Assembly (NCBI GenBank): GCA_049973735.1
Contig: JBMFJL010000004.1
Span: 1-23,874 of the forward strand
DNA length: 23,874 bases
DNA from: Nanopusillaceae archaeon
GTDB lineage: Archaea; Nanobdellota; Nanobdellia; Nanobdellales; Nanobdellaceae
Direction of reading: 5' to 3'
Shown: piece after piece, positions 4,440-17,703 of the stretch
How positions within the stretch are numbered: position 1 is the first letter of the stretch
How the letters are laid out: each line of letters begins with the position of its first letter
The notes under the pieces: model-generated
The model's input: only the letters and a program-made list of their open reading frames with translations
What the model was told of the DNA's origin: nothing
Database searches by the model: none
Program-made: the position numbers and the translations under genes

Positions 4440-5093
4440 TTATTTCTTTTTACCAGCAGATTCGTACAGATCATATACTGCCTCACCCGGTGCCAATATA
4501 ATATATTTGTATTTTTTCTTTGGTTTTTTAGGTTGAGGTGGTTTAGTTACCCAGGCTACAACTGCTATTAGCAATCCTATTACTATAATAAGTGGTAGTA
4601 AACCAGTATTAATCAAGAAATCTAATATTGTCAATAATGCGCCAGCAGCAGTTTGTCCAAATTCATCAAATGAAACTGAAGAGGCATACATAAATGCAAA
4701 TAAAACTAATAAACCTAAAATTCCCGTAATTGCATTATTTGCATATCCTTTGTATCTATTGAATGCTTCATCTTTTGGATCATAAGGTCTTGATACCAGT
4801 GATAGTAGTCCTATTACCATTAATATAAAAAATAATACTAGGAATTCAAAGAAGAAGAATGATATAAAGTTTTCTGTAAATATTACAGCTTGTAAATTAT
4901 ATATATAATAAGCGGCTAGAGCAAATGATACTACAGCATATAGTTTTTCTCTTGCAGGATTATCTCTACCAAAGATTCCGGTTTTTCTTAGTAATCCATA
5001 CATTAATGAAAATATTAATAAAAATGGGGCTATAATCGAAAATACACCATATTCAGAAAATGCAGCATATAGGAAAGATGTTATATCCATCAT
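4440..5093 (-). CDS. Multi-pass membrane protein, paralogue 3 of a tandem triplet (unknown family)
   Basis: 217 aa. N-terminal motif EYGVFSIIAPFLLIFSLMYGLL. C-terminal TM ending VVAWVTKPPQPKKP, then a lysine-rich tail. The start overlaps the stop of the upstream paralogue. Confidence 0.75.
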   Translation of the reverse strand: MMDITSFLYAAFSEYGVFSIIAPFLLIFSLMYGLLRKTGIFGRDNPAREKLYAVVSFALAAYYIYNLQAVIFTENFISFFFFEFLVLFFILMVIGLLSLVSRPYDPKDEAFNRYKGYANNAITGILGLLVLFAFMYASSVSFDEFGQTAAGALLTILDFLINTGLLPLIIVIGLLIAVVAWVTKPPQPKKPKKKYKYIILAPGEAVYDLYESAGKKK

Positions 5094-5632
5094 CTAGATC
5101 TTGAGTGATCTCCACCGCTTTGGCCAGGAGATGTTACCCAATATACTATTAAGAATAGTAGCAAGAATATTATTAACAGTGTTAATAAGCCAGATTGGAT
5201 TAGAAAATCTATAATATATCCAAATAATCCTACGAATCCAAAGTTAACATTTGCTTCATTCATTGCATTTACTGCTAGCCAAATCATTATTCCTACAACA
5301 ATCAATCCAAGTATTGCCCTTGCAGGTCCTGGTACATGTCTTCCAAATGCTGCTATAATTACTGCTAATAGGAAAAAGGCTAAAACTGCAAAAGAAGCAT
5401 TTGGAATAAATTTCAATAACCATATGACTAAATTGATGTTTGCCATAGATAGTAAGGCAAAAGAAAATGAAAATAGTATACTTAATTTCCTTCCAACAGG
5501 ATCATTTGGGGAAACTTTCAATAATCCTGAAAGTTCTAATATCATATAAACTAAAGAAAATATTAACAAAAATGGTAATATAAAGTCGAAAAATCCGTAT
5601 TGGCTTAATAATGTTCTTATATCTAATGCCAT
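5090..5632 (-). CDS. Multi-pass membrane protein, paralogue 2 of a tandem triplet (unknown family)
   Basis: 180 aa. QYGFFDFILPFLLIFSLVYMIL at the N-terminus and LIVYWVTSPGQ at the C-terminus. Ends in RSR-stop like paralogue 1. Confidence 0.75.
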   Translation of the reverse strand: MALDIRTLLSQYGFFDFILPFLLIFSLVYMILELSGLLKVSPNDPVGRKLSILFSFSFALLSMANINLVIWLLKFIPNASFAVLAFFLLAVIIAAFGRHVPGPARAILGLIVVGIMIWLAVNAMNEANVNFGFVGLFGYIIDFLIQSGLLTLLIIFLLLFLIVYWVTSPGQSGGDHSRSR

Positions 5633-6207
5633 TATCTAGATCTATTGTCTGGAGATTGAACCTTTGGGGCCTTTGTAACCCAAACAACAAATCCAAATAG
5701 TATTCCTAATATTATCAATGTTTCTATTAGATTTATTAAAAATTCGTTCTGTGCCAATTGACTAAACACTTCTTGCAATGATAATAAATAATTAAATATT
5801 CCGAGTGTAAATAAAACTACAATTGTAAAAATAATGGAAACTAGAGCTATGAATATTCTTTTTTGTGTAGGTCCTAACTTTACTTCACCACCTTCAGATA
5901 TAAATGGCGCTATTGCTAGTAATAAAAAGAATACTGTTAGTATGAATAAAACTATGTATGGTAATAAATTTTTTATGGCAAGGACTATGTTCACAGCACC
6001 AACAACTAAAAACCCTACAGATGCAGAGATCATGGATATTAAACTTCTGGCAACTTTTCCTTCTCTATCATCGCTGAAAGGATTTCCCAATAATTTATAT
6101 TTGGACAATAATCCGTACATGACAGCATACACGAGTAAGAAAGGAATAATCATATTGAAGAATCCAATGTTTTCTAATAATGAAAGTACGCCATTATATA
6201 ATGCCAT
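5632..6207 (-). CDS. Multi-pass membrane protein, paralogue 1 of a tandem triplet (unknown family)
   Basis: 191 aa. NIGFFNMIIPFLLVYAVMYGLL at the N-terminus and FGFVVWVTKAPKVQSP at the C-terminus. Ends in RSR-stop, which overlaps the next ATG (TAATG). Confidence 0.75.
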   Translation of the reverse strand: MALYNGVLSLLENIGFFNMIIPFLLVYAVMYGLLSKYKLLGNPFSDDREGKVARSLISMISASVGFLVVGAVNIVLAIKNLLPYIVLFILTVFFLLLAIAPFISEGGEVKLGPTQKRIFIALVSIIFTIVVLFTLGIFNYLLSLQEVFSQLAQNEFLINLIETLIILGILFGFVVWVTKAPKVQSPDNRSR

Positions 6208-6242
6208 ACATAATTAAAGGACATCATAATTTATTAACTTTG

Positions 6243-6482
6243 CTATTGTTCAGTTATATTTATATAGAATATAGCTTTGACGGGGCAGGCATTGGCTGCT
6301 TTTATTAAATCTTCTATTTCTTCCCTCTTAGTAATTGTTTTCTTTTTTAATACTATTTTACCATTTTTAACCCCAAATATATTTTTATTTATTAAATAGC
6401 ATGCAAAACAATTGATACACTTCTTCTGATCTATATCTACATAATATTTCACTCTTCTACGTTTATTGAATGTGTTGGGCAA
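6243..6482 (-). CDS. fdx: Small mono-cluster [4Fe-4S] ferredoxin. The true start is probably the GTG at 6452, which gives a 4-nt GTGA overlap with the upstream stop.
   Basis: CINCFAC (CxxCxxC) plus distal ACP cysteine: YVDIDQKKCINCFACYLINKNIF...AANACPVKAI. The ATG at 6482 would overlap the upstream ferredoxin by 34 nt. GTG 6452-6450 overlaps its TGA. Confidence 0.75.
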   Translation of the reverse strand: MPNTFNKRRRVKYYVDIDQKKCINCFACYLINKNIFGVKNGKIVLKKKTITKREEIEDLIKAANACPVKAIFYINITEQ

Positions 6483-6646
6483 GCAATAGCAGCATCTTTA
6501 GCTTTTTGTATTAAATTAGGATCATTAGTTTCTGATACTTTTGCTTTAGATTTTCCATCCGAATCCCAATCAAATATTTCTGGTGCAAGGACCATGCATG
6601 TTCCACATGCTATACAAGTATCTTTATTTACCCAGATTTTTACCAT
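6449..6646 (-). CDS. fdx: Small mono-cluster [4Fe-4S] ferredoxin (Pyrococcus/Thermococcus Fd type)
   Basis: MVKIWVNKDTCIACGTCMVLAPEIFDWDSDGKSKAKV...AKDAAIACPTHSINVEE. It has CxxCxxC plus CP and the overall pattern of the 65-67 aa archaeal ferredoxins. Confidence 0.88.
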   Translation of the reverse strand: MVKIWVNKDTCIACGTCMVLAPEIFDWDSDGKSKAKVSETNDPNLIQKAKDAAIACPTHSINVEE

Positions 6647-9107: not shown

Positions 9108-11095
9108 TTATTATTATGAACCAATCAGGCAAACTATTTAAAAGGTTAGTATTTTTGTTACCGTTATTAGTAGTAGCAGCAACAGGAGTACATGCAGAGA
9201 AAATAATAATAGAGCCAATGACAGCAAATCTATTAGCAAACTATATAGATAATGGATTAACATTTACAGTAAAGTTGTTCGATGTAAATGGCACACCAAT
9301 AGAGTCAGATTTGTACTTTAATATATATGATCAGAATGGACAATTAATTTATCAGTACTATAGATCAATTGATGTATCATGCTGCATTGTACAACCAAAT
9401 AAATCAGGAGGTGCACCATGTGTATATCAAATACCAGTAAATCCACAAGTTTTACAACAATTATTACAGACACAAAGAACAGAATGTGGCAATAATTATT
9501 ACTGTTCTACATCTACACCATCAAATTCATTTAGAGTAGAAGCAAAAGTAGCATTAGTATACAAAGGAGGAAATGTAACTACTGTAACTAATTCTTCAGT
9601 TTATAACTTAGTATATGTACCATACAATTTATCATTACAAATGATACAATTACCACCAACAATTTCAAAACAATACTTATTACAATATGGATTGAACTTA
9701 CAATCAATAGTATATCTACAGAATTCTGAAACAAGAATACAGAAATCAACATTGATGGTAACATTGTATGATTCAACAGGTAAGATATTATATCAAACAC
9801 AACAAGATGTAAGATTGACTCCAGGAGAAAACTTATTAACAGTTCCAGTATCTGGAGGATATTTTGCAGATGTATCTGGAAAGGTATTTGTAGAAGAGCA
9901 ATTAACAATAGTATTAGTCAATGGAAAGGTATTGACAGATAAAAAGACAGGATACTTCTATGTATCTGATAATCAATTTGGAGGAGCATTAGAATTAATG
10001 TCAATATCACCAGATTTCACAAAAATGACAAACTTAGAACCAAATAAATTCTATACAGTACAATTATTATTCAATAATCCATCGAGAGTATCATTAACAG
10101 CAGCAGTTCAATTGTTAGTATATGATCAATATGGAAACATAGTAGTAAATCAAAAGTCCTCAAATACAATAGGATCAAACCAACAAGGATCCGTATTTGT
10201 ACCATTCAGTACATATGGTTTAAAACCAGGATACTACCTATTAAAATTATACATATACCAGAATGATGCATTAGTAGATCAAAGAGAATATACAGTAACA
10301 GTAAATGCAGATTCTATAAATGCAGTAAGAGTATTAAGAGTAGATTTGAATACATTTGATGTAAAGCCAGGATCATTCATAAAATTATATGTATACTTAA
10401 AGAGCAACTTACCAATGGATGTACAAGTAACACCAACAGTAATGTCAAAAGAATTAAACCTATATCAGCAATTATCTACAATAACATTATCTCCAAACTA
10501 TGAAACACAATTGCCAGTAGTAATATATATACCAGCAGGATTGAAAGCAGGATATTATCCAGTTAAATTAGTATTTGACTACAATGGAGTAAGACAAGAA
10601 TACACATATGAATTATATGTAAATGGAACAGTACCAGTTTATTATCCAGTAAAGGCAGCATTAATTGGACCATCTGTAGTAGGAACAAATACAACATTTG
10701 ACATAGTAATAGTATCAAATTCAACACAAATATATACAGTAGATGTTTATCTAGATGTTGATGGTGGATATGCAATGCCAAGCCAAGCAAGAGTACAAAT
10801 AGGAGGATATTACTCTGAAAAAATACCAGTAAATATAACAGCAACAAGCTCAAATGTAACAGTAAAGGTTAGAGTAGTAAATGCAGATACAGGAGAAGAG
10901 TTGTATACATTTACACAATCATTACAAGGACAACCAGCACAAAGGATAACAACACAACAAGCAACACCAGATTTGTTCAGAGGAATAACATTCTGGATAC
11001 TAGTAGTAATAGCATTAGTAATAATAGGATTAATAATATATGAATCAAGAAGAAGAAAAGGAAAAGAAAAGAAAGGTAAAGAAGTAGAAGAATAA
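9104..11095 (+). CDS. Secreted, C-terminally membrane-anchored surface (S-layer-like) glycoprotein candidate with repeated beta-sandwich-like modules
   Basis: Signal peptide LFKRLVFLLPLLVVAATGVHA/EK. C-terminal TM ITFWILVVIALVIIGLIIY followed by RRRKGKEKKGKEVEE. Many N-x-S/T sequons. Recurring motif hhhh-[YF]-D-x-x-G-x-hh-Y (VKLFDVNGT, YFNIYDQNGQLIYQ, MVTLYDSTGKILYQ, QLLVYDQYGNIVV, VRVVNADTGEELY). Codon choice (cca/gta/aca/gca/caa) resembles the EF-2 gene. Confidence 0.7.
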   Translation: MIIIMNQSGKLFKRLVFLLPLLVVAATGVHAEKIIIEPMTANLLANYIDNGLTFTVKLFDVNGTPIESDLYFNIYDQNGQLIYQYYRSIDVSCCIVQPNKSGGAPCVYQIPVNPQVLQQLLQTQRTECGNNYYCSTSTPSNSFRVEAKVALVYKGGNVTTVTNSSVYNLVYVPYNLSLQMIQLPPTISKQYLLQYGLNLQSIVYLQNSETRIQKSTLMVTLYDSTGKILYQTQQDVRLTPGENLLTVPVSGGYFADVSGKVFVEEQLTIVLVNGKVLTDKKTGYFYVSDNQFGGALELMSISPDFTKMTNLEPNKFYTVQLLFNNPSRVSLTAAVQLLVYDQYGNIVVNQKSSNTIGSNQQGSVFVPFSTYGLKPGYYLLKLYIYQNDALVDQREYTVTVNADSINAVRVLRVDLNTFDVKPGSFIKLYVYLKSNLPMDVQVTPTVMSKELNLYQQLSTITLSPNYETQLPVVIYIPAGLKAGYYPVKLVFDYNGVRQEYTYELYVNGTVPVYYPVKAALIGPSVVGTNTTFDIVIVSNSTQIYTVDVYLDVDGGYAMPSQARVQIGGYYSEKIPVNITATSSNVTVKVRVVNADTGEELYTFTQSLQGQPAQRITTQQATPDLFRGITFWILVVIALVIIGLIIYESRRRKGKEKKGKEVEE

Positions 11096-11098
11096 GGT

Positions 11099-11119
11099 CT
11101 TTATTTTTTATCTGTTTTT
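11099..11119 (+). terminator. Oligo-T archaeal terminator after the surface-protein gene
   Basis: ctttattttttatctgttttt lies immediately after the TAA at 11093-11095. T-runs of this kind are the usual archaeal termination signal. Confidence 0.45.
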
Positions 11120-11161
11120 AAAATTTCATCATTTTTCAGCCTGGGACGGTTTCTTCATGAT

Positions 11162-11217
11162 TGTACCCCTGCCAACTCTACCTTTTCATTAGATCGAAGG
11201 TAACCCTCGGCAGGGGC
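11162..11217 (-). ncRNA. Candidate single-hairpin archaeal H/ACA box guide sRNA
   Basis: Minus-strand RNA: GCCCCUGCC-GAGGGU-UACCUU-CGAUCUAAUGAA-AAGGUA-GAGUU-GGCAGGGGU-ACA. That is a 9-bp GC-rich lower stem, an internal loop (6+5 nt pocket), a 6-bp upper stem, and an apical loop with tandem G.A/A.G (K-loop-like, GAUCUAAUGA). ACA follows the lower stem directly, 14 nt from the upper stem. It is the only GC-rich island in a 182-nt AT-rich spacer between convergent genes. Confidence 0.6.
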
Positions 11218-11277
11218 ATTATTTTAAATTATATTAAAATTTAATATTACTTATTTATTTAAAACTTTTTATTTTGA

Positions 11278-11958
11278 TTACTCTAAATGAGCCTTTTTAA
11301 TTATATACTCAGCATAATTTTTTTCTACTCTAATTTCATATTCATCAATAACAATTTCTTTTTTAAATAATGGTTGATATAATACGAATGTTTCATATTC
11401 TCCACCTTCTCCAACCAAGTTTATTTTGTATTTTTTATTATAGTCTATTAGTTTGTTCAGAATGTTTTTATCAAAAATCTTCCCAAGGATACTAATATCT
11501 AAAGGATAAGCATACCAGCCGGTTATTATAAATTTAAAATTATTTCTTAATAATTCATTTAAGTATTCTATTTCATCCTTTAACCATAGAGGATTAAAAC
11601 ACGATAAGTTTAGCTTTTTACATATTTTTTGGAATCTTGTTGCTTGATATTCTGATCTTATTGCTCCGGTAACTACTCCTTCAATTTTATATTCTTCTTT
11701 CAAATATTCTAATGCATTTTCAAGCGTTTTTTCTTCATCAAGATCGCTATGAAATATTTCTATTGGAATTTCTAGGGCTTCTGCCTGTAATCTAGTATAT
11801 TCATGGTTTATATAATGATATAAATAACTCTCACTATTTTTAGGTACAATATTTAATAAAACTTTAATTTTATGAGATTTTGACGCTATATATAAAGAAT
11901 AATTTGAGTCTTTTCCACCAGAATATAAAACTGCTAAGTTCATCCTAAAATTATCCAA
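11278..11958 (-). CDS. dph6: Diphthine-ammonia ligase (Dph6 / MJ0570-type PP-loop ATPase). The likely true start is ATG 11943, an ATGA overlap with the upstream stop.
   Basis: MNLAVLYSGGKDS (PP-loop SGGKDS), VVTGAIRSEYQ, LWLKDE, VGEGGEYETFVL. These are characteristic motifs of the diphthamide synthetase family. Confidence 0.85.
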   Translation of the reverse strand: MDNFRMNLAVLYSGGKDSNYSLYIASKSHKIKVLLNIVPKNSESYLYHYINHEYTRLQAEALEIPIEIFHSDLDEEKTLENALEYLKEEYKIEGVVTGAIRSEYQATRFQKICKKLNLSCFNPLWLKDEIEYLNELLRNNFKFIITGWYAYPLDISILGKIFDKNILNKLIDYNKKYKINLVGEGGEYETFVLYQPLFKKEIVIDEYEIRVEKNYAEYIIKKAHLE

Positions 11959-12566
11959 TTGGTTCTATAATTTATCATCTGACGGATCAAATTATCTAGA
12001 TAATCATCTGATAGTCTTGTTACATTAATTTCACATTCTCCAATACAATATAGATTATTATTATAACTTATTATATAAGTCTCTCCAATAGATAGATTTA
12101 CTATAAAGTTATTAAAATCAAAATATTGTTTAACAATTAGGATAGGATATGAAATATTTATGTAGTATGTTTTATTATAACAAAATGGATTACAAGGATA
12201 GCAAATATTTTCATTACAGTTCATTGTGCATGCTATAGGTATACATGTTTCAACCGTTTCATTAATTACAATATTTTCATTACATATAATTACATCTGAA
12301 GTATTTAGGTAATCTATAAAAATTAATGCATCATTGAAGTTTATTGCAATATCTACAGGATGAATTATAAAATAGCTGTTGCTCGAATTTAATTTATAAC
12401 ATCCATATTTATAAAAAATAATTCTTTGTGCAGATATATTTTGATCATTTATGCTCAAAACAACATTTTCTGTATAATAGTCACCTACTTTAGATAAATT
12501 TGAAAGTAAAAATAAAATAACTAATGATAATATCGCATATATGATCAATTTAAGATTTTTTATCAT
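11940..12566 (-). CDS. Hypothetical secreted or signal-anchored Cys/Asn/Tyr-rich protein
   Basis: 208 aa. N-terminal hydrophobic anchor LKLIIYAILSLVILFLLS. A 12+ Cys ectodomain (CIPIACTMNCNENICYPCNPFCYNKTYY, LYCIGECEIN) with many N-x-S/T sequons. No family recognised. Confidence 0.55.
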   Translation of the reverse strand: MIKNLKLIIYAILSLVILFLLSNLSKVGDYYTENVVLSINDQNISAQRIIFYKYGCYKLNSSNSYFIIHPVDIAINFNDALIFIDYLNTSDVIICNENIVINETVETCIPIACTMNCNENICYPCNPFCYNKTYYINISYPILIVKQYFDFNNFIVNLSIGETYIISYNNNLYCIGECEINVTRLSDDYLDNLIRQMINYRTNWIILG

Positions 12567-12709
12567 AAAATAATTTTTATAATATTTTTATATAAATTTT
12601 GGTGGCCGAGACCTTTGTATTATTCATTTATTATATGTTTATTCAAAATAATCAGAATTTAAATTAGAAATTATAATAGGGATAATTTTTAAATTCTTGC
12701 TTTTCATGG

Positions 12710-12718
12710 TTTATAAAA
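12710..12718 (+). promoter_or_regulatory. TATA box of the EF-2 gene (leaderless transcript predicted)
   Basis: tttataaaa is centred about 26 nt upstream of the ATG at 12740, the canonical archaeal TATA-to-TSS spacing. This places the TSS at or next to the start codon. Confidence 0.45.
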
Positions 12719-12739
12719 TATTTTAAATTAAAATAGTAA

Positions 12740-14944
12740 ATGGCAACTATTACCGAGAGAGTATTGAAATTAATGAATAACCCAAATAATATTAGAAACA
12801 TAGGGATAATAGCGCATATCCATCATGGAAAAACAACATTGACAGATTCTCTATTAGCGGGTGCAGGAATGTTGGCAGAAGAACTAGCCGGAGAAGCTAT
12901 GTTTACATGGTGGCATGAAACTGAAAAAGAAAGGGAGATGACAGTTTATGGTGCCGCAGTATCGATGGTTCATGAATATGAAGGACAGGATTATTTAATT
13001 AATCTAATAGATACGCCTGGTCATGTAGAATTTTCTGGACAAGTTACTAGAGCTGCTAGAGCAATCGATGGTGCAATAGTTGTAGTAGATTTTGTTGATG
13101 GTGTTATGCCTCAGACAGAATCTGTACTGAGAACCGCATTGAAAGAATATGTAAAACCTGTATTATTTATAAATAAAACTGATAGAGCTATTACTGAATT
13201 AAAATTATCTCCTCAACAGATTATGGAAAGAATTGGAAAAATAGTGATTGAAGTAAATAGATTAATCGATAAATATTCACCCGCAGAATTTAAAGGTAAG
13301 TGGTTGGTAAATGTAAATGATGGATCTGTAGCATTTGGTTCTGCAAAATTCCATTGGGCACTATCCGTTCCATTTATGAAAAAATATAATGTATCATTCA
13401 AAGATGTAATAGAAATATATAATAAGTATGGTAATGATAAGGAAAAATTGAAGGAAGAAATGAGAAAGAAGGCACCTGTTGCTAAGGTTGTTTTGGATAT
13501 GGTAATAAGGCATTTGCCATCTCCTGTTGAAGCTCAAAAATATAGAATACCACATATATGGAAGGGAGAAATAGAATCTGAAGTAGGCAAAGCAATGTTA
13601 AACTTAGATCCAAATGGACCATTAATAATAAATGTTACAAATGTAATAATTGATAAAGTATCAAAGCAAGAAATTGCAACTGCAAGGATATTTTCTGGAA
13701 CATTATCTAAAGGTGATGATGTATTTTTATCTCAGGCAAATAGACAAATAAAGATACAACAAGTAGCTATATGGAAGGGAATACAGAGGATAAATGTAGA
13801 TTATGCAAAAGCCGGAAACATTATTGCATTAGTTGGAATCAAAGGATTATATCCTGGAGAAACAATTATTGGAAAGGTACAAGATCCAAAGTCTGTAGCA
13901 ACTTTTGAAGAGCTGAAACACTGGTTAGAACCAGTAGTTACAAAATCTTTTGAACCAAAGAATCCAAATGATTTACCAAAATTAATTGAAACATTAGAAT
14001 TAATTAAAAGGGAAGACCCAACAATAAAAGTAGAGCAAAGAAAGGATACAGGAGAAATATTGGTATCTGGTTTGGGAGATTTGCATTTACAAATAATAGA
14101 ATATAGAGTACAAAATGATTTTGGAATACCAATAAAGGTTGGAGAACCAATTGTAGTATACAGAGAATCTGTATTAAAGCAAACTCAGATACATGAAGGA
14201 AAATCTCCAAACAAACATAATAAACTATATTTCCAAGTAGAACCATTGCCACCAGAGATTTATGAAAAACTTAGAGAATATATAAGGGAAGGAAAGATAC
14301 CGGAAGGAAGGATTAAGAAAGAAGATTTGTGGAAGGTATTTGCAGAAATAGGATTTGATAAAGAAGAAGCAAGAAGAATAATAATGGTATGGAATGGAAA
14401 TGTATTGATTGATATGACTAGAGGTATAGTACATTTGCCAGAGGTAATAGAATATATAGTAGAAGGATTTAAGGAAGTAATGGAACAAGGACCAATAGCT
14501 TGGGAACCTGGAATAATGATGAAAGTAAAATTGATTGATGCTGTGTTACATGAAGATGCCATACACAGAGGTCCAGCTCAAATAATACCTGCTGCAAAAG
14601 ATGCAATAAAGGAGGCAATATTGGAACAGGCAGTTTTATATGAACCATTACAAATCATAAGAGTAGATGCACCACCAGAAAATGTAGGAGACGTAAGTTC
14701 ATTATTACAATCTAGAAGAGGACAAATAATTGAGATGAATATGGAAGAGGATAGAGTAATAATAAAGGCAAAGATCCCTGTAGCAAATATGTTTGGATTT
14801 ACAGATGAGTTAAGATCTGTAACATCTGGAAAAGGTGTATGGTTCTTGGAAGATCAGGTATTCGAAAAGGTACCAAGAGATTTGCAAGAACAAATTATAC
14901 AAAATATAAGAAAAAGAAAGGGAATACCAGAGGGGGTTCACTAA
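12740..14944 (+). CDS. fusA: Translation elongation factor 2 (aEF-2)
   Basis: IRNIGIIAHIHHGKTTLTDSLL (G1), LINLIDTPGHVEF (G3), FINKTDR (G4), diphthamide loop HEDAIHRGPAQ. 734 aa, full length. Confidence 0.97.
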   Translation: MATITERVLKLMNNPNNIRNIGIIAHIHHGKTTLTDSLLAGAGMLAEELAGEAMFTWWHETEKEREMTVYGAAVSMVHEYEGQDYLINLIDTPGHVEFSGQVTRAARAIDGAIVVVDFVDGVMPQTESVLRTALKEYVKPVLFINKTDRAITELKLSPQQIMERIGKIVIEVNRLIDKYSPAEFKGKWLVNVNDGSVAFGSAKFHWALSVPFMKKYNVSFKDVIEIYNKYGNDKEKLKEEMRKKAPVAKVVLDMVIRHLPSPVEAQKYRIPHIWKGEIESEVGKAMLNLDPNGPLIINVTNVIIDKVSKQEIATARIFSGTLSKGDDVFLSQANRQIKIQQVAIWKGIQRINVDYAKAGNIIALVGIKGLYPGETIIGKVQDPKSVATFEELKHWLEPVVTKSFEPKNPNDLPKLIETLELIKREDPTIKVEQRKDTGEILVSGLGDLHLQIIEYRVQNDFGIPIKVGEPIVVYRESVLKQTQIHEGKSPNKHNKLYFQVEPLPPEIYEKLREYIREGKIPEGRIKKEDLWKVFAEIGFDKEEARRIIMVWNGNVLIDMTRGIVHLPEVIEYIVEGFKEVMEQGPIAWEPGIMMKVKLIDAVLHEDAIHRGPAQIIPAAKDAIKEAILEQAVLYEPLQIIRVDAPPENVGDVSSLLQSRRGQIIEMNMEEDRVIIKAKIPVANMFGFTDELRSVTSGKGVWFLEDQVFEKVPRDLQEQIIQNIRKRKGIPEGVH

Positions 14945-15322: not shown

Positions 15323-16156
15323 TTATATTTTAGGTTGATATATATGTATCATATATAGATAGGTAATATATGAAAAAGGAAGAATTACTACGAAGAAAAA
15401 GGTTAATGATGATAAGATTGATGGATTACCGGATGCGAATGAGAATAGAAATGCAAGTATTAACAATACTATTGGAAAAGTTATGAAGAAAAATGCATAT
15501 AATGTTATCCATAAATTTGTTTTTTCGTTGTATGCTTTCAACTGTATTTCATATTCTCCTAATCTTTCTTTTGCATATATTTTGGCAAAATCTCTTAAAG
15601 ATCCTCCAGATTTAATTACAGATACCAATCCATAAAGGAATTCTTTGAACTTTTCAGATGGTGTCGAATTTGCAACTTTTATTAATGCAGATACTATATC
15701 ATATCCGAATAGATCAATTAGCAATATTAAGTATGATAATTCTTTATTAATTGCGCCGAAGTTCTTCTTTTTATTCAATAGCTTAAATATTTCTATTATA
15801 TTCATTCCAGAACCGGAATAAGAGTAAAAGTATAAGGCAAAGAATGGTAGATTATCTTCTAAATCTTTTATATAATCTGCTCTAGCCATATCTGGATAAA
15901 AATAAAAATAAATAAAAACTAATGAAGAAACTATTATTGAAAACAATAAGTTCATTAAAAATAAAACTATGTCATAAAATCCTGCAGTTAATATTAATAT
16001 AAAAAACATAGAAATAAAACTAAGTATGAAGAATAATATTACATAGTCTATTACAATTTTTACATATTCTTCTACAGTTACTTTGAAACTAGTATAGACT
16101 AAAGATCCTTTTTTGTTTACAAAGTACGGATATAGTTTTCTTACAAGATATTTCAT
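15323..16156 (-). CDS. Type IV filament platform membrane protein with a single T2SSF domain (FlaJ/TadC-like, half-size)
   Basis: 277 aa. TM hairpins flank a cytoplasmic T2SSF-like segment (LPFFALYFYSYSGSGMNIIEIF...LIKVANSTPSEKFKEFLYGLVSVIKSGGSLRDFAKIYAKERLGEYE). 4-nt overlap with the upstream ATPase gene. Confidence 0.75.
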   Translation of the reverse strand: MKYLVRKLYPYFVNKKGSLVYTSFKVTVEEYVKIVIDYVILFFILSFISMFFILILTAGFYDIVLFLMNLLFSIIVSSLVFIYFYFYPDMARADYIKDLEDNLPFFALYFYSYSGSGMNIIEIFKLLNKKKNFGAINKELSYLILLIDLFGYDIVSALIKVANSTPSEKFKEFLYGLVSVIKSGGSLRDFAKIYAKERLGEYEIQLKAYNEKTNLWITLYAFFFITFPIVLLILAFLFSFASGNPSILSSLTFFFVVILPFSYITYLYMIHIYQPKI

Positions 16157-17703
16157 TTTATTTTTGATAGTAAAGCGTCTTTATCCAGATAATATAGCTT
16201 TATATAATCGCTAATCTTCTTTTGGTCTCTTATATTCTTTTTAACTAAATATTCTATTATTTCTTCTTTTTCTTCTATTGCATCCTTTATTGGCTTTTTG
16301 TAACCTCTCCTATATTTTAATTCTTCTTCTATTAATTTTCCTAGATTTTTTATTTCATATTTATCTTCATCTACATTCCATTTTACAGTTATTTCTGTCT
16401 CTATTTTTTCATTTTTGAATTTTCCAACTTCAACTATTTCTCTGATCCTTCTAGATGATGGAGAAATACTTCTCGCTCTAATCATAAATATAACTGCATC
16501 TAATAATGCTACATGATCAATTGGAAGATTTATTGGCGGTGTTGTTAGCCTTCTTATCAATGATCTCCATGTATCTGCGTGTATTGTTGATAGTGAAGAA
16601 TGACCAGAAGCCATACCTTGGAACATTACATATGCCTCTTCTCCTCTAACTTCTCCAACTACTACATAATCAGGATTTTGTCTAAAAGATTCTGCAAGTA
16701 AAGTATACATATTAATTTCTCCATAGTATTTATCTCCTATCATAAATCCTTTTCTTGTTGTTGCAGGTATCCAATTTTCATGATATAATTGTAATTCTCT
16801 AGTATCTTCTATGGATATTACTTTTGCATCCGGTGGTATAAACATTGATAAAACATTTAGTAGAGTTGTTTTACCTGAAGATGTAGGACCTGCAACAAGA
16901 ATATTAGCTCTATATTCTACTAAAGTCCAAAGATATGCAGCAACCTTTATATCTAAAGTATTTAATTTTATTAAATCTACTAACGATAACATCTGTTTTT
17001 TAAATTTTCTAATATCGAAGGTTGGACCTCTTGTTGTAATTTCCTGTGAATATGTTATATTTATTCTAGAACCATCTGGTAGGGTTGCATCTAAAAGTGG
17101 TTCTGCATATGATATATGTTTACCAGCTTTTTGAGCCAATTTTATTATAAATTTGTCTAGTTCTTCTCTTGAGAAATATATATTCGTTTTTAATGTACCA
17201 AATTTACTGTGATATACATATATAGGAGAGTCATAACCATCACAAGAAATATCTTCTATAAATACATCATGAAACAGAGGTTCTATTTTTTCAAGTCCCA
17301 ACATATCCCTCCATAAATAATAATAATATTTCATAAATGTTCTGGGATTTATTTTTATTTTAAATTTTTTTACATATTTATATAGTGCTTCAATTAATAT
17401 TGATTTTTTATCAGTATTCAAATACTTATCAGGATCAATATACATATCATCTAATACGAATTGTTTTACTTTATTTAAGAAAAATATCTCTTCATTAGAC
17501 AGTTCAGGTTCTAATACTTCATAAACCAACTCTTCTGATATTAAATCATAGTAAATATGAGCATATGCGAAATTTCCTATTAGTGGATAGATAATATTTA
17601 CTTTTTCTTTTTTCTCTTTTATTTCAAAATTTGGAATGTAATTTTGCTTTTTTATTTCCTCATCAAATTCTTTCAATATATCATTTACATTAATCTTTTT
17701 CAT
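16153..17703 (-). CDS. FlaI/PilB-type secretion ATPase (archaeal type IV filament assembly, VirB11/GspE superfamily)
   Basis: YEVLEPELSNEE N-domain motif. LVAGPTSSGKTTLLNVL (Walker A). PDYVVVGEVRGEEAYVMFQGMASGHSSLSTIHA (Walker B + His box). IEDTRELQL (Asp box). Confidence 0.9.
   Translation of the reverse strand: MKKINVNDILKEFDEEIKKQNYIPNFEIKEKKEKVNIIYPLIGNFAYAHIYYDLISEELVYEVLEPELSNEEIFFLNKVKQFVLDDMYIDPDKYLNTDKKSILIEALYKYVKKFKIKINPRTFMKYYYYLWRDMLGLEKIEPLFHDVFIEDISCDGYDSPIYVYHSKFGTLKTNIYFSREELDKFIIKLAQKAGKHISYAEPLLDATLPDGSRINITYSQEITTRGPTFDIRKFKKQMLSLVDLIKLNTLDIKVAAYLWTLVEYRANILVAGPTSSGKTTLLNVLSMFIPPDAKVISIEDTRELQLYHENWIPATTRKGFMIGDKYYGEINMYTLLAESFRQNPDYVVVGEVRGEEAYVMFQGMASGHSSLSTIHADTWRSLIRRLTTPPINLPIDHVALLDAVIFMIRARSISPSSRRIREIVEVGKFKNEKIETEITVKWNVDEDKYEIKNLGKLIEEELKYRRGYKKPIKDAIEEKEEIIEYLVKKNIRDQKKISDYIKLYYLDKDALLSKIK

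Follow-up and report, generated by a model that had tools for sequence, protein, structure and literature searches.

The DNA stretch analysed here, referred to as the window, comprises nucleotides 1 to 23,874 of contig JBMFJL010000004.1 (contig C4) of a Nanopusillaceae archaeon (assembly GCA_049973735.1). The source genome assembly is 786 kb long and 86% complete, the window has a G+C content of 27%, and the nearest named relatives of the organism are Nanobsidianus stetteri, Nanopusillus, strain YN1 and Nanobdella aerobiophila. The window includes a cassette of three consecutive open reading frames (ORFs) on the minus strand, named here genes A, B and C in the order of their reading. Gene A (nucleotides 5632 to 6207) codes for 191 amino acids, gene B (5090 to 5632) for 180, and gene C (4440 to 5093) for 217, the last protein having a longer Lys-rich tail that is predicted to be cytoplasmic. 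These coordinates and lengths agree with a preliminary description of the locus, made from the DNA alone, which regarded the three products as paralogous membrane proteins of an unrecognised family and proposed that they form a hetero-oligomeric complex.

Judged by a full-length alignment, with 27-34% identity and 28 invariant columns, and by BLASTP (E values of 1e-11 for A-B, 6e-14 for A-C and 2e-15 for B-C), the three proteins are true paralogues, as had been proposed. The motif G-x-F-x-x-I-x-P-F-L-L in the first transmembrane (TM) segment is present in all of them (GFFNMIIPFLLVYAVMY, GFFDFILPFLLIFSLVY and GVFSIIAPFLLIFSLMY). A shared C-terminal signature, W-V-T-[KS]-[PA]-P, had been described as well; it is found in A (WVTKAP) and C (WVTKPP) but not in B, which reads WVTSPG. 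The genes are translationally coupled. At the A/B junction (5632 to 5643, minus strand) the sequence AGATCTAGA-TAATG includes a one-base overlap of stop and start codons, while at the B/C junction (5090 to 5101, minus strand) the overlap in AGATCTAG-ATGA is of four bases, and stop/start overlaps are also seen in relatives of this cassette.

Both junctions carry the decamer ATCTAGATCT, of which the window has exactly two copies, at 5092-5101 and 5634-5643; the expected count is 0.15, and two copies were reached in 2 of 100 shuffles. The preliminary description took this identity to mean that the duplication unit had included the gene junction. We do not agree with this interpretation, because the paralogues are far older than the time over which a 10-nucleotide DNA identity could survive. 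The R-S-R ending that the decamer helps to encode is confined to the window and to the p2 protein (the second of the cassette) of Nanopusillus, and is missing from YN1 and Nanobdella; the decamer is therefore a recent, local feature due either to chance or to a short gene conversion. A similar process may have acted in Nanoarchaeum equitans, where the tandem family members NEQ250 and NEQ249 share a near-identical C-terminal stretch, FKIDENILAFLAV.LPIG.MVG.LY.AT, that suggests recent gene conversion between them.

The products of the cassette had been described as having four or five TM segments, and both hydropathy and AlphaFold2 give five. Two family alignments of 38 and 150 sequences, A, B and C included, were used for modelling gene A, and produced mean predicted local distance difference test scores (pLDDT) of 88 and 85 with predicted template modelling scores (pTM) of 0.52 and 0.58, respectively. 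The models are all-helical, with an amphipathic helix (residues 2-14), TM1 (16-37), two helices (48-103), TM4 (113-134), a loop helix (137-152), TM5 (155-178) and a basic tail. Lysine and arginine residues gather in the loop that follows TM1 and in the C-terminal tail, which in gene C has nine of them, and therefore the positive-inside rule predicts a five-TM topology with the N terminus outside and the C terminus inside. TM1 and the short segment behind it are the best-conserved part of the family. Residues G15, P22, F23, L25, F27, L34, K36, G41 and V75 are conserved in at least 90% of the 150 sequences, and in both alignments G15, P22, F23 and L25 show no variation or almost none. Proteins of this family can thus be recognised by a length of about 180 to 220 amino acids, five TM helices, a basic tail at the C terminus and, in TM1, the motif G-x-[FY]-x-x-x-x-P-F-L-L with a basic loop on the cytoplasmic side behind it, and their genes by an arrangement as three co-oriented, closely spaced or overlapping paralogues. 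A, B and C have all of these characteristics. Proteins A and C include neither cysteine nor histidine, and protein B has no cysteine and two histidines.

The view that the family is an unrecognised one held in Pfam, NCBIfam, PDB-sequence and Foldseek searches, none of which gave a consistent match. Scans of A, B, C and 38 family members against Pfam and NCBIfam returned nothing consistent; the sub-threshold matches to MFS_2, DUF6097, Acyl_transf_3 and T4SS_pilin, limited to one or two members each, are typical of hydrophobic bias and were dismissed, as was MscK, the top match of the PDB-sequence profile search, whose E value of 0.02 is not credible. Foldseek comparison of both AlphaFold2 models to the PDB gave no match (best E values 0.14 and 0.39, TM-score about 0.2). 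All named homologues are annotated as hypothetical proteins. NEQ218, NEQ250, NEQ249 and NEQ273 of N. equitans, MJ1_0713 of Nanobdella and YN1_2640 are true members of the family; none of them has been characterised, no mention of them was found in the main text of the literature searched, and the paper on the YN1 attachment organelle and a 2026 preprint on Nanobdellota genomes hold nothing on the family.

The distribution of the family was determined in 401 genomes of the GTDB phylum Nanoarchaeota, which were searched with a profile of A, B and C and then with a deeper profile. The three-sequence profile found the family in 393 of them, usually with two or three matches each, and the deeper one added one genome (about 394 of 401). 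The family is therefore close to universal in this phylum, including Woesearchaeales, Pacearchaeales, Nanoarchaeales and others. When 1.84 billion representative sequences were searched exhaustively, 2720 family clusters at 50% identity were obtained. Among named records all matches were to Woesearchaeota or Nanoarchaeota, apart from a few metagenome-assembled genomes that carry the label Methanosarcinales or Alphaproteobacteria, probably because the bins were mislabelled. The matches were tandem and co-oriented in the 30 loci from distant families that we inspected, and likewise in 80 named loci, with a tandem cassette in nearly all of the loci. In a tree of 79 proteins the members fall into positional groups, p1, p2 and p3, that recur in distant genomes, with a support of 100/100 for the p3 clade. 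Because the cassette is phylum-wide and the p1, p2 and p3 groups are old, the genes in the window cannot be explained by a local event, and the tandem triplication in this reduced genome that had been envisaged has to be abandoned.

Comparison to p1, p2 and p3 profiles built from distant genomes permits a tentative assignment of the individual genes. Gene A scores 104 bits with p1, 61 with p2 and 40 with p3; its product gives 66 bits with NEQ218 in BLASTP and is 51-54% identical to YN1_2640, Nanobdella MJ1_0713 and Nanopusillaceae proteins, so that by these scores it is the p1 ortholog and the ortholog of NEQ218. Gene B leans only weakly to p2 (65.5 bits, and 48.4 with p1), and its same-genus orthologs score about equally on both profiles. 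Gene C, the third by position, scores 75 bits with p1, 50 with p2 and 34.5 with p3, and the tree groups it with the clade that contains p1 (support 82/98). A fourth, strongly diverged member of 212 amino acids lies outside the window on the minus strand of another contig of the source genome (G000:C23:446-1084). Its product shares the helix layout and has a basic tail but is devoid of the PFLL motif, and it resembles NEQ273, which among the N. equitans copies is the p3-like one; the gene is conserved in dispersed positions throughout the family Nanopusillaceae. In the lineage of the window, the C23 gene could thus be the old p3 and gene C an additional copy, or else gene C could itself be a p3 in which ancestral characters were retained.

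All copies are intact, the arrangement of three tandem genes and one dispersed gene recurs through the family Nanopusillaceae, and every copy is retained even in those genomes that are most reduced. N. equitans keeps four copies (NEQ218, NEQ250, NEQ249 and NEQ273), which are dispersed except for the tandem pair NEQ250-NEQ249 adjoining rrp41; the NEQ249 frame (L124, G059:C1:220.6-221.7 kb) extends to 217 amino acids, while the deposited protein has 178. The intactness and translational coupling of the copies in each of the relatives examined fit the proposed hetero-oligomeric membrane complex, so that this part of the preliminary description stands even though its premise, the triplication in a reduced genome, does not.

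The indication of function comes from the gene neighbourhood in other orders of the phylum. There, p1, p2 and p3 lie on one strand and are followed by two convergent genes for coiled-coil proteins of about 220 and 150 amino acids and, beyond these and divergent from them, by genes for an ATPase of about 765 amino acids and a protein of about 735 amino acids with about eight hydrophobic segments. The ATPase matches T2SSE in Pfam and the archaeal afGspE (2oap), CpaF and FlaI in the PDB. The membrane protein of about 735 amino acids has no Pfam or PDB match; by its size, topology and position it would be a TadC/FlaJ-like platform. The products of the cassette are themselves unlikely to be platforms, as hhalign against the alignment of the neighbouring platform gave a probability of 0.85% and there was no match to PF00482, and we rejected a T2SSF/TadC/FlaJ identity for them. 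Among loci of orders other than Nanoarchaeales and Nanobdellales whose downstream flank covers 3 kb or more, the coiled-coil/ATPase module lies within 6 kb of the cassette in 38 of 42. The commonest upstream neighbour, on the other hand, is found in only 17 of 53 loci, and the linkage to the module is therefore not ordinary synteny but a genomic tie to a motor that extends across the lineage.

The genomes in which the family is missing bear on the same question. Seven of the 401 had no convincing match after the search with the deeper profile. In four of these (G014, G044, G233 and G336) the ATPase ortholog is at, or within about 1.1 kb of, the end of a contig, and the absence is explicable because the cassette would fall beyond it. 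Two others, G090 and G331, have neither the family nor the ATPase ortholog, a joint absence that supports a coupling of the two. The seventh, G302, is considered below. In G044 the match to the ATPase ortholog (G044:C14:1109-4861, locus L129) is in two pieces, corresponding to profile positions 8-556 and 555-760, which are about 1.5 kb apart within one open frame of 1265 amino acids; this looks like an intein or another in-frame insertion near the ATPase core.

In the source genome the cassette, on contig C4, is not adjacent to the module, whose parts are on two other contigs. Contig C2 carries the ATPase (27084-29327; 789 bits, about 747 amino acids) together with both coiled-coil genes, and contig C8 carries the TadC/FlaJ-like platform gene (11070-13040; 656 amino acids). 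The latter is located among six small genes with pilin-like hydrophobic N termini, such as MIIMKKRAIDMAVQLVFVILIML (G000:C8:7965-13815), which are likely to encode the pilins of a scattered machine. A candidate prepilin peptidase on C19 (4937-5242) scores 25.8 bits against a cut-off of 26.5. From these matches the machine appears to be complete, though scattered. This agrees with a recent description of scattered type IV filament loci in Nanobdellati (PLoS Genet 2026, PMC13705601).

Systems with the same parts have been described before. Hamm et al. 2024 (Nat Commun 15:6449, PMC11291902) reported two conserved type IV pilus-like loci in cluster-2 DPANN archaea that include coiled-coil proteins, CpaF and TadC, have proteomic support in Nanohaloarchaeum, and were proposed to act in host interaction. 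The module that flanks the cassette consists of the same components (two coiled-coil proteins, a CpaF/FlaI-type ATPase and a TadC-like platform), and the source genome encodes all of them, but there the triplet is not beside the module. The term "membrane protein" is absent from the main text of PMC11291902, and the triplet thus appears to be undescribed there. Archaeal type IV filament systems likewise combine a core of ATPase and platform with poorly conserved, lineage-specific accessories (PMC4858521, PMC13705601); those catalogued are pilins, single-TM proteins, S-layer-like proteins and cytoplasmic proteins, and in the text searched of these two articles they include no triplet of paralogues with five TM segments.

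The accessories of the archaellum (the ArlF/G stator and the ArlX or ArlC/D/E scaffold, which includes coiled-coil proteins) offer an analogy as non-filament proteins around an ArlI/ArlJ core. The likeness goes no further: A, B and C show no sequence or fold similarity to them, and while ArlF and ArlG consist of a single TM segment and a globular domain, A, B and C are almost wholly embedded in the membrane.

Taken together, we favour the reading that A, B and C are hetero-oligomeric membrane subunits of a type IV filament-like machine, to which we assign a probability of roughly 0.55, the function being deduced from the genomic context. The ancestral state would have been a fixed, coupled p1-p2-p3 cassette beside the genes for two coiled-coil proteins, a CpaF/FlaI/GspE-type ATPase and a TadC/FlaJ-like platform. 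The three proteins and the fourth, dispersed member would assemble with one another in fixed proportions as a hetero-oligomeric membrane sub-complex of the motor, which could act as a scaffold in the membrane, as a stator-like element or as a conduit that surrounds the platform. The core of their interaction may be the conserved TM1 together with the short cytoplasmic segment behind it (G..P-F-L-L...L-E-K-T-K-I-L-G). In Nanoarchaeales and Nanobdellales scrambling of the genome would have parted the cassette from the motor; the source genome still encodes all of the partners elsewhere. The preliminary description had also mentioned a channel and a host-contact or uptake device; a pure channel or uptake role is possible, and the link to the module suggests, by way of the neighbourhood, a concrete anchor for the idea of a host-contact device.

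Several observations weigh against a role of the cassette in such a machine. Adjacency is its sole link to the module, it is convergent to the coiled-coil genes and hence forms a separate transcript, and in complete relatives belonging to the order of the window it lies 155-170 kb from the ATPase gene, so that adjacency is not required. The joint absence in G090 and G331 is confounded because the genes are physically linked in fragmented assemblies, and in each of these metagenome-assembled genomes it could reflect one missing contig. In G302, which is 92% complete, the ATPase and coiled-coil genes are followed by unrelated genes and the family was found nowhere. The pTM of the monomer models is modest (0.52-0.58). 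Whole-cell proteomics of N. equitans recovered five spectra of NEQ249 and none of NEQ218, NEQ250 or NEQ273; small hydrophobic proteins are often missed by this approach. To our knowledge, moreover, accessory subunits with five TM segments like these have no counterpart in any type IV filament system.

Some of these facts would be expected if the proteins were instead an independent membrane complex, such as a small channel, a transporter or a membrane-integrity factor, whose position next to the module is inherited gene order. This is the main rival of the machine-subunit reading, and we consider it a possibility to be taken seriously, albeit a clearly less probable one. It accounts for the convergence of the two units, for the retention of the module without the cassette in G302, and for the complete unlinking of the cassette in Nanoarchaeales and N. 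equitans, where neither partner has been lost; the near-universality of the family would also suit a housekeeping membrane function. It does not account for a downstream linkage that is far above the upstream background across many families, nor for the lack of the family in both of the genomes that are devoid of the ATPase ortholog, and the searches made revealed no similarity to any transporter family.

If, on the other hand, the proteins do belong to the machine, they could be unusual substrates of it rather than subunits: the glycine before TM1 would be cleaved in the manner of a prepilin peptidase, and the pilin-like TM1 would enter a filament or a membrane-proximal structure. Type IV pilins and archaellins have a short basic leader ending in [KR]-[GA], one N-terminal hydrophobic helix and a globular domain. 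The family does have an invariant Gly15 followed by a conserved hydrophobic helix, with aspartate at +3 in most p1 proteins and proline at +7, and Makarova et al. 2016 (PMC4858521) found no cognate pilins for a nanoarchaeal ATPase of the same clade. Nevertheless, the residue before the glycine (position -2) is hydrophobic rather than lysine or arginine, the 14 residues that precede the glycine are modelled as a confident amphipathic helix (pLDDT >90) instead of a short basic leader, there are four further TM helices and no globular domain, and the source genome has ordinary pilin-like genes around the C8 platform. We therefore rejected membership in the pilin and archaellin class, and regard processing as substrates as improbable. 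Still less can be said for the proteins being very divergent A24-family prepilin peptidases of the machine, an explanation that we rate as the least probable of all. They are of similar size and also have five TM segments, most p1 members have an acidic residue in TM1, and two nanoarchaea had no recognisable peptidase in the survey of Makarova et al. 2016 (PMC4858521); but there was no match to Peptidase_A24 (PF01478) even at an E value of 10, a second conserved aspartate and a GxGD motif are missing, the TM1 aspartate is not conserved in A or C, and a separate candidate peptidase is present on C19 of the source genome.

The genes around the cassette in the window raise one further explanation. 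The cassette is preceded by an NTPase/MazG pair and two ferredoxin genes, and followed by a gene for a CBS-domain protein, rrp4 and rrp41, and the three complete genomes of the same genus have the same gene order. A, B and C could then be the membrane partners of the two upstream ferredoxins in a small redox or electron-transfer complex, since the cassette has between one and three ferredoxin genes ahead of it both here and in those three genomes. We consider this very improbable, and a functional tie between the cassette and the ferredoxins doubtful, because the membrane proteins have no cysteine ligands; given that A and C have no cysteine or histidine and B only two histidines, no obvious ligands of a cofactor are present, and elsewhere in the phylum the genes upstream are those for translin, PRC-barrel proteins, AspRS and others, with no ferredoxins next to the cassette. 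The occurrence of small monocluster ferredoxin genes before the cassette (6243-6646 in the window, and loci L033-L035) is a feature of this lineage only. An A+T-rich spacer of 35 nucleotides (6208 to 6242, minus strand) separates the nearest of them from gene A and includes, about 25-32 nucleotides before the ATG, the sequence TTAATAAA, which may be the TATA box of a leaderless transcript. An ORF of 127 amino acids on the plus strand (5834-6217), antisense to gene A, has nothing to support it and was rejected as a gene. Farther along the window, on the minus strand (15323-17703), is a second, shorter pair consisting of T2SSE (516 amino acids) and T2SSF (277 amino acids), which is paralogous to, but distinct from, the system of the ATPase of about 747 amino acids on C2.

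The cultivated Nanoarchaeota depend on touching a host directly, by molecular means that are not known (Wurch et al.). The family to which A, B and C belong is one of the few sets of membrane proteins present in nearly every genome sampled, including the 0.49-Mb genome of N. equitans, and for these proteins, which have neither a name nor a relative by fold, the very strong link in the genome to a motor of the pilus type is the sole functional lead. Cultivated relatives that carry the genes are at hand in Nanobdella aerobiophila, YN1, Nanopusillus acidilobi and N. equitans. As a more speculative extension of the machine-subunit reading, the triplet and the fourth member might form a Nanoarchaeota-specific membrane ring or conduit that works with the motor in attachment to the host or in exchange of material with it. 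If this were true, the family would add to type IV filament machines a polytopic subunit of a new class.

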